Source of the DNA: Salinispira sp.
Lineage (GTDB): Bacteria; Spirochaetota; Spirochaetia; DSM-27196; Salinispiraceae
Length of the DNA stretch: 64,000 nucleotides
Direction of reading: 5' to 3'
Assembly: GCA_965602015.1 (NCBI GenBank)
Contig: OZ271918.1
Location: 352,001 to 416,000 of the forward strand
In this document: positions 7,569-11,374 of the stretch, piece by piece
Position numbering within the stretch: the first letter of the stretch is position 1
Layout: every line of letters begins with the position of its first letter
Translations under genes and position numbers: made by a program
The notes under the pieces: generated by a model
The model's database searches: none
The model's input: only the letters and a program-made list of their open reading frames with translations
What the model was told of the DNA's origin: nothing

Positions 7569-8702
7569 TCAGGCCACCGCATAATCGGGAAGATCGATCT
7601 TCAGCGCACTCACCGGTGTCTTCCAGATCCGATGCCAGGTCTTCCATTGGCTGATGTCCAGCACCAGATGATGAACGAATGCCCGCTGTGTAAACATCCG
7701 TTTTACCAACATCAGTACCCGCCTTCGGTCAAACCCCGCAACCTCACCATGGCTGATATCGTTACGTCCGTTTATCCGATACGGCTTGAGCAGGTTATGA
7801 TAGGCGATGTAGATCATCATCCGCTCCATGCTGTTGTTCACCGATTTTGACCACTGCACACTCTGGCGGACATGACAGGATTGATCCTTTCGTATCTCCC
7901 GATCCAGGTAATTCACCGGAAACAGGGGGTTCTCAGTGGTCCTCACTACCCTCGATGAGGTTCGGTGATGGATAACCCGCCCTGCATTTTCCAACGCCGC
8001 CCAGTCCCGGTGAGCGAACAGCTCACGGCGGTATTCGAGTTTTTCATCGCTCAAGAGATAGCATGGCTTCTTCGATGAATAAGCCCTCCACCTGGGAAGA
8101 ATGGTGTTTATCACATCCCGGAAAGATCGCGCAATTTGTCCCCCTGCAATAGGATACCGGCGATTGAGCTCATCGCGCCGGCGCTTTTGCGCGGGGGTCA
8201 TCCGCCCTTTGCGCCGCATCTGCGCATAGTCGCAGGCATAGACAACCTGGCTGTCGCAACCCACCGCGAGGGTGAAGTTGTTCGGCCAGTATTGGCTGTG
8301 CACAAAGCTTTCAAACCCATCAACGGCAATATCCTCATCGATTGTATGATCATTCAATAACTGGGCCATGGCAGCGATTGCCTGACGGGACAATCGGCTC
8401 AGCCGATTGAGAATGACCTTGTCGGTGACATAAAACTCCCGGGCAATGTCGCGGATGCCGGAAGCCGAGTTGATCGAAGAGAAGATGCGCCGGTAATCGA
8501 GGCGATGATGTGCGCGATAATCGAGGTGAAACGCGCTTTCGCAGAAGTATCGACGGCAATGCTTACAGCGATAGCGCTGTGAAGAACCGAGGCGGCGACA
8601 GTGATAGTGGCCGTTTCGGACAAACCAGCATCGGCTTGATTCTCTGTCGCGATGATGCTGAGAGCAGTCCGAGTACGGACAGAATCGGGGGTAAAATGCC
8701 AT
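7569..8702 (-). CDS. IS1/IS1595-like transposase (Zn ribbon, HTH, DDE-type RNase H fold)
   Basis: CPYSDC...QRYRCKHC Zn finger; SGIRDIAREFYVTDKVILNRL HTH; acidic motifs IAVDGFES, LLSDE, VNYLDREIR; YIAYHN; AGGAG RBS. Confidence 0.75.
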   Translation of the reverse strand: MAFYPRFCPYSDCSQHHRDRESSRCWFVRNGHYHCRRLGSSQRYRCKHCRRYFCESAFHLDYRAHHRLDYRRIFSSINSASGIRDIAREFYVTDKVILNRLSRLSRQAIAAMAQLLNDHTIDEDIAVDGFESFVHSQYWPNNFTLAVGCDSQVVYACDYAQMRRKGRMTPAQKRRRDELNRRYPIAGGQIARSFRDVINTILPRWRAYSSKKPCYLLSDEKLEYRRELFAHRDWAALENAGRVIHHRTSSRVVRTTENPLFPVNYLDREIRKDQSCHVRQSVQWSKSVNNSMERMMIYIAYHNLLKPYRINGRNDISHGEVAGFDRRRVLMLVKRMFTQRAFVHHLVLDISQWKTWHRIWKTPVSALKIDLPDYAVA

Positions 8703-8808
8703 GGTAATCTCCTATGAGCGGTAATCGTGTCATAGAAGACTACTGGCAAAAGAGTTATGTTGATTCGATCAGCTGTTTTGGGGGCATATCTGAAAGCGGT
8801 GCCTCCCC

Positions 8809-8970
8809 GCAAGAGTTTTCATTGTTCTATTACAAAAATTCTGCAAATCGGTTTTGTCCGAGTCATATCTCCGCCATCTACGTGGCATGAAAATGTCCTT
8901 CCAGGGGTGTCGCAATCACTTTGCACAGCCTCGTATTCGCGCTGTAGCCCCAAAAACGCGCTTACCCCTG
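8809..8970 (-). ncRNA. putative bridge RNA / seekRNA of the IS1111-type element (boundaries approximate)
   Basis: Minus-strand segments GTTTTTGGGGC (8957-8947), AAGTG (8921-8917), TTTCATGCCA (8892-8883) and AGATATGA (8870-8863) match the target and donor junction; closing stem 8964-8970/8902-8908. Confidence 0.75.
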
Positions 8971-10014
8971 TCTGGACAAACCCGCTAATGCAGGATCTTT
9001 GTAATGCTGTTCTTTCTGCAATATCCAAAATATTGCTTCTGCTAAGTGCCGTGCCACGGCGATTATTGCAACCTTATGATTACGTTTAGTACGAACTCTC
9101 TTGTAGAGTTTTACCGTATGTCGGTTCGCCCAATTTCTTTGATTAAGACAGGTTACATTAGCTGCTTCAGTAAGTGCCCACTTCAAGTATCGATTACATG
9201 CTTTCGATGTTCGACCATAATGGATTTTACCTCCGCTCGAGTGAACGCGCGGCGTTGTACCACAGTATGATGCAAAATGTTCAGCGGTCTTAAAGCGATG
9301 TATGTCTCCAATTTCATGCACAATGACTGCGCTGAGAATAAATCCGATCCCGGGAATGGATTTCACCAACTTCATTTCAGCATTTTCATCAAACGCTTCA
9401 TGCATTCGTTGTTCGCAGTCGGTGATAGATTGCTTAATAAACGCGAGATTATCGAGCTTGAGTTTCATCATGCTGCGGGTATGCTCGGGGAGTTTTGGCA
9501 TTACCTTCTTCATGGCTTCTGTACCTGCTTTTCCGAACAGATCGCTCACATCATTGAATCGAAACCCATATTTCTCGAACCCGGCATGAATTTGATTCTT
9601 TTCACGTATCAACTCCTGAACGAACTGCATCCGGGTTCGATAGAGTTCTCGTTTATCACGCAATTCTCCTGGTGGAATCCACACAGTAGGCAGTGTGCCT
9701 GCTTTTTGAAGTTTATTGAGACCTTCAGCATCGAGTTTGTCAGTTTTGTTAAACATGGCCATCATCAATTTTGACTTACCGGCATGAACCAGCAAGGGGT
9801 TCATGCCGGCCTCCTCAATCTCATCCACGATCCAGTACCAACTTCCGATCGTTTCAAGTGCGACTTCCTGTCCCGGCTCAAATTGTTGGAGGAAATCACG
9901 AATACACCCGTGAGAATGTTCTATGCGCTGTGAGGATTTCCTTCCATTTTCGTTCTCAATTGCAGCCACGGTATACCGTTTATGGCTGTCGAGGGATATA
10001 ATAGTATTACTCAT
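8962..10014 (-). CDS. IS110-family DEDD recombinase/transposase
   Basis: ISLDSHK, ALETIG, KTDKLDA RuvC-like DEDD; SIPGIG...FASYCGTTPRVHSSGGK C-terminal domain with the conserved Ser; GGAGG RBS. Confidence 0.96.
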   Translation of the reverse strand: MSNTIISLDSHKRYTVAAIENENGRKSSQRIEHSHGCIRDFLQQFEPGQEVALETIGSWYWIVDEIEEAGMNPLLVHAGKSKLMMAMFNKTDKLDAEGLNKLQKAGTLPTVWIPPGELRDKRELYRTRMQFVQELIREKNQIHAGFEKYGFRFNDVSDLFGKAGTEAMKKVMPKLPEHTRSMMKLKLDNLAFIKQSITDCEQRMHEAFDENAEMKLVKSIPGIGFILSAVIVHEIGDIHRFKTAEHFASYCGTTPRVHSSGGKIHYGRTSKACNRYLKWALTEAANVTCLNQRNWANRHTVKLYKRVRTKRNHKVAIIAVARHLAEAIFWILQKEQHYKDPALAGLSRQG

Positions 10015-10111
10015 TTGGTTGTCCTCCTCCGGTATTTAATATAGACCCTGACTGGCAGGATCTCGGGGGAGGCACCGCTTTCATACCATCACTTCAAAAA
10101 TAATCCCGGCG

Positions 10112-11374
10112 TCACTCAAAATCCGATATTATCACCCGCAAATCCTCATAATCGGGAACCCGGTAATCTTTAGCCTTCAGGCGGTGGTCAAAATAAGCCC
10201 TGATCTGCTGCCTTTGGTATTCCATAAAGACCTGAGGTTTCACCGACCCGATCATACCCAGCCATTGAACTACCGGGGCATACATATAGAGGGTGGTGAA
10301 CTGCTGATGGGTGATGTTTTCGATCTGATACAGCTCAACCGGTGATTCTAATGCGGAGACAAAGGGCATAAGGTAACCGTCATTGATTCCTCCCTCCCAC
10401 TGAGCGCTGCGAAGGAAAAGGGATGGCAGCTCATATTCCCCCGATTCCAAGTCTGGCCGCCCCACCGGCTCGACCCAGGCATCCAGCCCGACGAGGGCCT
10501 GGATCGACGGATAATCCGTTGATTGCTCACCGGCAGCCTCGAGTTCTCTGCGGTAGTCAATTGCCAGCCGCACCATGGCTCCCCCGCCTGTGGAATGCCC
10601 CAAGAGGCCGATTCGCGATAGATCCAGTTTTCCCGCGAGAGATATACGGTGCTGAAGTCCGCCCGGCTCAGACCCGGCTTGAATGTCCATCAGGTGATCG
10701 AGGATAAATCTGTTGTCATCGGCGAAGGTTTGAACCAGTCGGGAAGACAGGCGGGGAAAATCCGGGGAATTCTCTCGAAGGGGCAGGATATCATCCCCGG
10801 ATTGGATGATTCTGCCGTCTTCCAAAACCACCGCTGCCGCACCGTAGCTGTGGTCTGCTGCGGCAACCAGGTAGCCGTGGCTGGCCAGCTCTTCGGCCAC
10901 ATCGACGTGAAGTCCCCGGTATCCCTCCCAGCCGTGCGAAATGATGATAACCGGGAACCGTTCCCCTTCCGGGCTTATCGCCGGATGAGCTCCTTCAATG
11001 CTGTTGGCCGCCATAAATCCGGTGTGATTCCAGATAAAGCCCGGGAAGCCGTGGGTGTTTACAATTGCCCGGATCTGACGTCTGCCTTCGGGAATCCATC
11101 GCAGCATCCGACGGGTATTTCTCTGTTCATCCGTCGGATACCAAAGCTGAAGCCGAATAGTCCGGGGGCCGGGTGTATCACCGCGAATTGGGGCATAGGA
11201 CTCAGCGCGATCCGGATCGGAAATATCATAGACCACACTGCCCACGGCAAAGGGGCCCGTAGGCTCCGGGAGGTTTCTGGGGGGCATGGCAATGCCCCAC
11301 ATAAAAACCACTCCGATTGCCAGAATAATGACAATAGTAAACAGCAGGATAAAAAGAAGGCGTTTGGCGCTCAT
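10112..11374 (-). CDS. alpha/beta hydrolase, PAF-acetylhydrolase-like
   Basis: PTGPFAVG, QLWYP, IISHG, GHSTGG nucleophile elbow, LDAW; N-terminal TM. Confidence 0.82.
   Translation of the reverse strand: MSAKRLLFILLFTIVIILAIGVVFMWGIAMPPRNLPEPTGPFAVGSVVYDISDPDRAESYAPIRGDTPGPRTIRLQLWYPTDEQRNTRRMLRWIPEGRRQIRAIVNTHGFPGFIWNHTGFMAANSIEGAHPAISPEGERFPVIIISHGWEGYRGLHVDVAEELASHGYLVAAADHSYGAAAVVLEDGRIIQSGDDILPLRENSPDFPRLSSRLVQTFADDNRFILDHLMDIQAGSEPGGLQHRISLAGKLDLSRIGLLGHSTGGGAMVRLAIDYRRELEAAGEQSTDYPSIQALVGLDAWVEPVGRPDLESGEYELPSLFLRSAQWEGGINDGYLMPFVSALESPVELYQIENITHQQFTTLYMYAPVVQWLGMIGSVKPQVFMEYQRQQIRAYFDHRLKAKDYRVPDYEDLRVIISDFE

Follow-up and report, generated by a model that had tools for sequence, protein, structure and literature searches.

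An IS1111-type insertion sequence of Salinispira with a probable bridge RNA in its right end, inserted at the tip of another mobile element's terminal repeat

Guide RNAs of the kind known as bridge RNAs or seekRNAs were described in 2024 for insertion sequences (ISs) of the IS110/IS1111 family (Siddiquee et al., 2024, PMC11187229; Durrant et al., 2024, PMC11208160; these and the other papers named below are cited for selected passages), and, according to the predictions of Durrant et al., 93% of IS1111 elements carry one in their right end. Here we analyze a stretch of 64,000 nucleotides from Salinispira sp. (contig OZ271918.1, positions 352,001 to 416,000 of the forward strand; hereafter the window), in which positions 8787-10089 of the minus strand form an IS110-family insertion sequence of the IS1111 type, with a DEDD transposase and a TG core. 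A reading of the bare letters (hereafter the original prediction) had proposed that the non-coding end downstream of the transposase gene carries RNA guides that match both the insertion target and the joined ends of the element. We document the anatomy of the element, its insertion sites, the conserved structure of the RNA and the covariation of its guides with flanks and ends, and we consider it very probable that this element, one of ten copies in the genome, encodes in its 175-nt right non-coding end a bridge RNA (seekRNA) that guides its recombinase.

Anatomy and insertion sites of the element

The transposase/recombinase gene (8962..10014, minus strand; stop codon TAA at 8964-8962) encodes a 350-aa protein that matches both Pfam families of the group, PF01548 (DEDD_Tnp_IS110, 39.9 bits) and PF02371 (Transposase_20, 92.9 bits), and scores 224.6 bits, with a cut-off of 140, against the NCBIfam model NF033542, "IS110 family RNA-guided transposase." Among 23 aligned sequences, residues D9, E54, D92, D95, G252, P255 and G261 are invariant and S260 is nearly so; the protein combines a DEDD (RuvC-like) N-terminal domain with a C-terminal Transposase_20 domain bearing the G..P....S/T-G motif that defines IS110/IS1111 transposases (Siddiquee et al., 2024). 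The left subterminal inverted repeat TGAAAGCGGTGCCTCCCC (10066..10083, minus strand), the start of which, TGAAAGCG, is common to the whole family, forms a perfect 18-bp pair with its complement, the right subterminal repeat GGGGAGGCACCGCTTTCA (8791..8808, minus strand). Between the left repeat and the core lies the extension ATGGTA (10084..10089, minus strand), the programmable "right donor" half, which is 6 nt long in all homologues whose ends were found and differs in sequence among clades; the left TG core (10090..10091, minus strand) follows a variable left flank that ends in AG, so that 10/10 left junctions read AGTG. At the other end (8785..8790, minus strand), the 4-nt extension GATA (8790-8787) is followed by the right TG core (8786-8785). 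Subterminal repeats of appreciable length (7-17 bp in IS1111 elements according to Durrant et al., 2024) combined with short extensions are typical of the IS1111 type, as is the excess of non-coding sequence downstream of the gene (175 nt vs. 75 nt upstream).

The genome, a single 3.87-Mb contig, contains ten copies of the element and one detached left-end fragment, with 98.6-100% identity. The guides discussed below are identical in all ten copies; only 4 of 197 positions vary, in the linker, a hairpin loop, a spacer and the subterminal repeat, and none of these is in a guide. The left junctions read xAG-TG|ATGGTATGAAAGCGG in 10/10 copies, which amount to nine independent cases because two copies form a tandem duplication, and all ten right ends read ...CTTTCAGATA|TG, followed in 8/10 by CCCC(C/G)AAAAC. 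Aligned in the orientation of the element, the flanks thus take the form left flank-AG-TG|ATGGTA-repeat...repeat-GATA|TG-CCCC(C/G)AAAACAGCTGAT, and all complete right junctions but two adjoin the terminal inverted repeat of an unrelated family of ISs and miniature inverted-repeat transposable elements (MITEs). In the window, this target is the terminal inverted repeat GCCCCCAAAACAGCTGAT of the neighboring IS (8768..8785, minus strand), which is present in about 120 genomic copies. We considered the possibility that CCCC(C/G)AAAACAGCTGAT is the end of the element itself and ruled it out, given that 113 copies occur without the element and bound unrelated sequences, including short palindromic MITE-like units and an element that carries an open reading frame (ORF) like the one at 8702-7569 in the window.

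Specifically, the pattern CCCC(C/G)AAAACAGCTGA has 120 exact matches in the genome, of which 113 are empty and 7 occupied, the latter comprising four C-type and three G-type copies. The empty sites read A(G/C)TGCCCC(C/G)AAAACAGCTGA, with a single TG present in 113/113, and the junctions originally inferred from the window agree with these sites as well as with the flanks of the ten copies. The orientation of the element relative to the repeat is the same at all typical sites, with TG on both sides and no duplication beyond this shared core, so that insertion is site- and orientation-specific in the manner of IS1111 elements. With TG as the shared core, insertion takes place at the outer tip of a terminal inverted repeat that belongs to another mobile element. 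Although only 64 of the 113 empty sites read AGTG (28 read ACTG), every occupied site does, a pattern that would arise by chance at nine independent sites with a probability of about 0.006 (0.566^9) and that fits a short left guide reading AG.

Covariation of the guides and conserved RNA structure

The target module of the predicted RNA (all RNA features are on the minus strand) is closed by an outer stem whose 5' strand, CAGGGGU (8964..8970), overlaps the last codons and the stop codon of the transposase gene, and whose 3' strand, ACCCCUG (8902..8908), follows the invariant scaffold AUUGCGAC (8916-8909); all 8 stem pairs of the family show compensatory changes. Within this stem, the right-target guide GUUUUUGGGGC (8947..8957), the first G of which is the last base of an invariant AAGCGCG scaffold, is complementary to the top strand G-CCCC(C/G)AAAAC of the target. 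A capping hairpin, UACAGC...GCUGUG (8924..8946), with 4 predicted pairs, each accompanied by compensatory changes in the family, separates it from the left-target guide AAAGUG (8917..8922). The latter is identical to the left flank plus the TG core and is effectively AGUG, the upstream A's agreeing with some copies only; it is followed by AU (8915..8916), which equals the first two bases of the left end (AT) and provides candidate handshake positions. The segments on which the original prediction was built are all in place, namely GTTTTTGGGGC (8957-8947), the ACAGC (8945-8941)/GCTGT (8929-8925) stem with AAGTG (8921-8917), the closing stem CAGGGGT (8970-8964)/ACCCCTG (8908-8902), and two donor-matching segments, TTTCATGCCA (8892-8883) and AGATATGA (8870-8863). 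It had also correctly noted that the only imperfect position of the right-target guide faces the variable base of the repeat, forming a U.G wobble with G-type copies. With C-type copies, this U of the guide forms a U.C mismatch, and one guide could thereby address both halves of the 120-copy family.

Evidence that these segments are guides, stronger than that drawn from this sequence alone, comes from their covariation with insertion sites among approximately 75 homologues, with about 50% protein identity, drawn from two independent collections, one of genome contigs and the other of metagenome contigs. From the 80 relative loci of the first collection, we excluded 15 that lacked a stop codon or a recognizable end in the available DNA, as well as those with N in the flanks, duplicates, and those missing TG at either core position; the final set consisted of 40 homologues plus the present element, with the anchors of L077 and L027 corrected by hand. 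The second collection also comprised 80 loci, 52 of which have all RNA anchors; 39 of these, with both ends and long flanks, could be scored, and 36 are non-duplicate. An initial metagenome scan with a single transposase protein had found no relative. The nearest proteins outside the source genome show 59-60% identity, and a search of seven further genomes from that organism's taxonomic family, two of them less than 90% complete, did not recover the transposase at E <= 1e-40.

The homologues share their ends, which consist of TG, a 6-nt extension and TGAAAGCG... on the left, and ...CGCTTTCA, a 4-nt extension and TG on the right. They also share a scaffold 3' of the stop codon that runs through the outer stem, (U)AAGCGCG, 9-10 variable nucleotides, a hairpin, variable nucleotides ending in UG, A(A/U)UGCGAC, the 3' strand of the outer stem, a linker, variable nucleotides ending in CA, the hairpin UGCCN...N'GGCG, A-GA(G/U)AUG-A(C) and a small hairpin. 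The right flank of each element recurs as its reverse complement in the first variable stretch, and the left flank is repeated in the second. In L022, for example, the guides UUUUGUCA and GGAAUG correspond to the flanks TGACAAAA and GGAATG, whereas L079 carries the guides AUAACCCA and CGACCUUUG, and L077 carries CCACCGCA and GGAGUG. Moreover, closely related elements with near-identical scaffolds (for example, L078/L079/L082/L089 and L039/L047/L050/L057/L066) have differing guides that match their differing flanks. When flanks were reassigned at random among elements, none of 5000 shuffles reached the observed score for any of four guides in either set. For the right-target guide, the observed score was 226 against a shuffle mean of 107.5 in the genome set and 203 against 96.1 in the metagenome set; the corresponding values were 161 against 43.2 and 153 against 33.6 for the left-target guide, 148 against 117.6 and 148 against 114.5 for the core-anchored donor guide, and 164 against 142.3 and 156 against 136.8 for the right-end donor guide. 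Collapsing the genome set to 29 distinct target classes gave the same outcome. The guide-target covariation that the original prediction had proposed as a check is found in both sets.

With respect to structure, RNAalifold applied to 40 sequences yields 20 predicted pairs, and compensatory changes occur at 15 of these; the pairs make up the 8-pair outer stem, the CGCG/UGCG stem, which is invariant, and two hairpins, one capping the target loop and the other in the donor module. A covariance model built from 39 homologues, with the present element left out, yields a single match in the 64-kb window, at 8840..8980, which spans the full length of the model (87.9 bits, E 2e-21), and the target module also emerges when the sequence is folded on its own. 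A conserved, covarying secondary structure and loop segments that are complementary to both target strands around the core and covary with the insertion sites, both present here, are among the defining features of a bridge RNA/seekRNA. Because the guides covary with flanks and ends, the stems compensate and the covariance model matches, we take the originally proposed right-target, left-target and right-end donor segments to be real guides; the same three lines of evidence bear out the broader claim, namely that an RNA of the IS1111 bridge/seek type, comprising a target loop and segments that match the donor, is encoded downstream of the gene.

The right-target guide spans 11 nt, compared to 2-9 nt, most commonly 7, in the other 85 of 86 clade elements (counted from the core G with at most one mismatch), a comparison that is uneven in that the target here is a 120-copy consensus and that of each relative is one insertion. 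The loops of published bridge RNAs pair with DNA over 8-14 nt in six elements, and a review (its Table 1) gives totals of 13-20 nt for the target matches of IS1111 seekRNAs. The guide, which the original prediction called unusually long, is indeed the longest in the clade but lies within the published range of the family. A consensus scan calls a terminator-like hairpin with a T-run at 8960-8981; given that this T-run is the U-rich right-target guide itself, the call is probably a by-product of the guide rather than a conserved terminator.

A sub-clade comprising L078, L089, L152, L157, L176, L177, L180 and L181 sits between ...GGTTCGAATCCCGT-TG and GGGCCACCA / GGGGAA..., flanks that by their sequence look like the T-arm and the acceptor (3') end of a transfer RNA (tRNA) gene. 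ARAGORN called no tRNA in any of seven loci with tRNA-like flanks, among them L078, L089, L157 and L176 of this sub-clade and L079 and L156 of a neighboring one, as would be expected if the insertion splits the gene.

The donor module and competing explanations

The donor module is centered on the hairpin UGCCA CGUAGA UGGCG (8872..8887), which has 4 pairs, the innermost with 16 compensatory cases; its variants in the family include GCCG/CGGC, GCCC/GGGC, GCCA/UGGC and GUCA/UGAC, and the sole difference within it among the ten copies falls in the loop. On its 3' side, the donor guide AGAUAUG (8864..8870) copies the right-end extension GATA and the TG core, as originally proposed, with 4/4 matches in this element, and it tracks the GAGA, GATA, GATT and TAGA variants of the homologues, reading GATT in L030 and TAGA in L085. 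Further downstream, folding of the single sequence predicts a small hairpin, UCGG-ACAAAA-CCGA (8848..8861); RNAalifold did not call it, and a similar one is visible in homologues. On the 5' side of the donor hairpin, the family has a guide of 7-9 nt that ends in CA opposite the core. It matches at 7-9 of 7-9 positions in L033, L036, L051, L088, L102 and L103, and the segment tracks the left-end extension in about half of the elements. In the present element, the core-anchored guide ACAUUUUCA (8888..8896) matches its own left end imperfectly: against TGATGGTAT it forms 3 Watson-Crick pairs, a mismatch, 2 rU.dG pairs, a pair, a mismatch and a pair; over the extension, it has 2/6 Watson-Crick pairs, or 4/6 when U.G wobbles are counted.

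This poor match leaves room for other views of the donor side. The original prediction had read the donor guide in a shifted register, in which the hairpin would be opened by UUUCAUGCCA (8892-8883), whose partner would be TGGTATGAAA, located 3 to 12 bases inward from the left end, beside and over the start of the subterminal repeat, with the core-anchored register unused. Here, the shifted register gives an 11-pair run (with G.T/U.G allowed), the joint longest of any register in 41 elements, and across these elements it provides the longest run in 24, compared to 14 for the core-anchored register. We nevertheless consider it improbable that this register is the functional one. The 3' half of the proposed guide, UGCCA, belongs to a conserved, covarying stem: UGCC(N) is the 5' strand of the hairpin in 40/40 aligned sequences, the innermost pair is compensatory, and the GCC columns ignore the left-end extension. 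Part of the shifted-register score is built in, because much of it stems from pairs between UCAU and ATGA, and every donor has ATGA at the core and again where the subterminal repeat starts. Conversely, in the core-anchored register, ACCAUCA, AUCAUCA, AUAAUCA, AUAUCA and AUUUUCA track ATGG.., ATGATA, ATTATA, ATAT.. and AAAATA, respectively, and the closest relatives, L102 and L103, match at 9/9 positions. The extent of this guide as originally drawn is thus doubtful; its boundary had been flagged as uncertain from the outset. A view that we rate as somewhat less probable still is that only the target module guides, the protein recognizing the donor ends through the subterminal repeats and 8900-8848 being a processing or structural portion of a longer precursor. 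The weak donor match of this element would fit such a division of labor, and so would the finding that an 82-nt short seekRNA of ISEc11 is sufficient and more efficient than the long form (Siddiquee et al., 2024). This view has to accommodate, however, the segment before the second core copy, which tracks the right-end extension in all its variants, the tracking of the left end in about half of the elements, and the two donor signals, both of which exceed 5000 shuffles in two sets; furthermore, Durrant et al. (2024) predict donor-binding nucleotides in IS1111 bridge RNAs.

The most skeptical view, that no RNA guide exists and that the matches are coincidences in an ordinary 3' untranslated region or terminator, can draw on the promoter and terminator scans, which are at background (4 promoter-like sites vs. 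2.8 +/- 1.6 expected, and 2 terminator-like sites vs. 1.1 +/- 1.2 expected, one of them the match overlapping 8981-8960), but in our judgment it is almost certainly mistaken. When the 189-nt non-coding end was subjected to 100,000 mononucleotide shuffles, 253 of these contained an 11-mer complementary at 10 or more of 11 positions to the junction-adjacent target, and only 13 combined it with AAGTG 20-80 nt downstream, in a test that fixes the target register at the junction and ignores the freedom of register choice in the original prediction; moreover, the covariation is replicated in two collections, the stems are compensatory and the covariance model matches at the E value given above. Several observations weigh against our own interpretation. 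The flank shuffles ignore relatedness among homologues, even if retargeting is visible within clades, and every homologue was scored on one insertion only. The sequencing runs listed for this organism, all from one study, include none recorded as RNA. The base that faces the core T is U, not A as in most homologues, although L072, L078, L085, L089, L102 and L103 share this U. The minimum free energy of the single sequence only modestly beats that of shuffled sequences (z -2.0 and -2.3), and an Rfam scan of 8600-10300 with 4227 models at permissive thresholds found no matching family, its three matches (E 3 to 7.4) being far below gathering scores and all within the coding region. By its core-anchored donor match, this element ranks among the lowest of the 41, and the donor module need not have a role, given that the short ISEc11 seekRNA, which lacks the distal part, sufficed for transposition.

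We therefore retain as by far the best explanation a bridge RNA with a target module and a donor module, and propose the following course of events, in which, by analogy with the published work on IS1111 and IS621, the RNA would be made, bound by the protein and direct recombination. The outer stem (8970-8964 with 8908-8902), which begins inside the last codons, and the CGCG/UGCG stem would close off an internal loop that has a hairpin as its cap. On the 5' strand of this loop, GUUUUUGGGGC would pair with the target's top strand right of the TG core, and on the 3' strand, AAAGUG would pair with the target's bottom strand over the core and to its left. The donor module (ACAUUUUCA, the hairpin and AGAUAUG) would read the joined ends of the excised circle, ...CAGATA-TG-ATGGTA.... 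Strand exchange at the TG core, carried out by the RNA-bound DEDD/serine recombinase, would then leave the element inserted where the flanking AG-T meets the first G of an unrelated IS/MITE family's terminal inverted repeat.

In the IS621 complex, each loop has two bases beside a guide, termed handshake guides, that pair with the other DNA once strands have been exchanged (Hiraizumi et al., 2024, PMC11208158). In the present clade, the donor core is followed by the same base with which the right target flank starts in 33/41 elements of the genome set (23.7 expected) and 35/39 of the metagenome set (22.4 expected), and this agreement holds in 6/6 and, among the 36 non-redundant elements of the metagenome set, in 8/9 of the cases in which the base is not A. 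At the target core, the second base that follows agrees with position 2 of the left end in 36/41 (20.6 expected) and 30/39 (21.5 expected; reached by 5/5000 shuffles). The one or two bases after each bottom-strand guide may accordingly behave like handshake guides for the non-cognate partner, a reading that we treat only as a lead because few independent clades carry informative variants. Read on the opposite strand, the present RNA would have the order of the IS621 RNA, with the long guide 5', a hairpin, and the short guide plus two nucleotides 3'. In this particular element, the donor guide may tolerate a mismatch and two wobbles. We hold these readings together with somewhat less than even confidence; if the handshake guides and the IS621 layout on the opposite strand are right, the clade may show how the IS1111-type RNA relates to the solved IS621 complex, and what looks like a "reversed order" in IS1111 would amount to one and the same machine turned around with respect to the gene. 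In the passages of the handshake literature consulted, IS1111 appears only in reference lists or general text, and those of the IS1111/IS621 bridge-RNA literature yielded no mention of an IS1111-type structure.

Further features of the locus and comparison with known systems

The targeted neighbor encodes a 377-aa zinc-finger transposase-like ORF (7569..8702, minus strand) that belongs to no Pfam family and shows weak matches to IS1 (35.3 bits) and ISL3 (23.4 bits), both under the cut-off. The terminal repeat of this IS/MITE family, GCCCC(C/G)AAAACAGCTGA, is flanked by A(G/C)T triplets, in the window (7569-8785) as well as genome-wide, and the family includes at least 8 copies with the 377-aa zinc-finger ORF and several short palindromic derivatives. 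Two arrangements of the IS1111-type element outside the window depart from the typical one. At genome positions 1706974-1709284, a broken copy has its first 69 bases separated from bases 389-1320 by about 1.3 kb of other DNA, and its right flank, TGCCCCTAAGC, is a degenerate repeat. At 3399415-3402538, a tandem duplication has a unit of 253 bp of host DNA plus the IS; the right end of the first copy is joined via TG to GCATATAAC, the start of the duplicated 253-bp unit, which is unlike the normal target. This junction could reflect off-target or sister-chromatid recombination by the element's right junction. When the ends are joined in a virtual circle (8787-8815 to 10084-10091), TTGCGG-N18-TATGAT, recognized by eye only, spans the join, and the same join in the relative L022 gives, also by eye only, TTGACA-N17-TATAAT; the sequence of the joined ends would fit the junction promoter described for the IS110/IS1111 family.

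For annotation, these findings fix the true ends, the core and the target of a ten-copy element and explain its constant position at the tip of another mobile element. The bridge-recombinase field gains an uncharacterised, widespread clade, with a 350-aa protein and an RNA of about 130 nt, from many environmental phyla, the readable scaffold and several dozen natural retargetings of which could serve as a covariation table for engineering IS1111-type systems. Members of the IS110 family carried on plasmids are distant, every tblastn match in PLSDB being below 60% identity, with 23-36% among the matches listed; for IS4321/IS5075, the identity is about 23-24% over 83% of the transposase. To judge by the title of a reference, IS4321/IS5075 are reportedly IS1111-type elements that specifically target the terminal inverted repeat of another transposon. 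In their case, insertion reportedly falls inside the terminal repeat of Tn21. The present target is instead an IS1-like/MITE repeat with about 120 copies, and insertion occurs at its outer boundary, so that the G of the core is the first base of the repeat.

The closest parallels are the seekRNAs of ISEc11, ISPa11, ISKpn4 and ISPst6 (Siddiquee et al., 2024), in which the RNA likewise lies downstream of the transposase gene and begins near its end, and the match to the top strand precedes, in the 5' to 3' direction, that to the bottom strand, the two overlapping at the insertion point. These elements also share subterminal inverted repeats, a transposase of 330-350 aa with the G..P....SG motif and natural retargeting among relatives; the passages of that paper on which we rely differ from our account in that they describe no donor-binding module. 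IS621 (Durrant et al., 2024; Hiraizumi et al., 2024) resembles the present system in its two modules, in guides for the top and bottom strands around a shared core dinucleotide, in handshake positions beside the guide (candidates in our case), in DEDD and serine-bearing domains, and in a target that is a repeated sequence, but it differs in having its RNA in the left end upstream of the gene with the guide order reversed, a CT rather than a TG core, and subterminal repeats of 2-3 bp rather than 18 bp. Taken together, these comparisons indicate that the Salinispira element would operate in the manner published for IS1111 seekRNAs and IS110 bridge RNAs, a known principle that it leaves unchanged.

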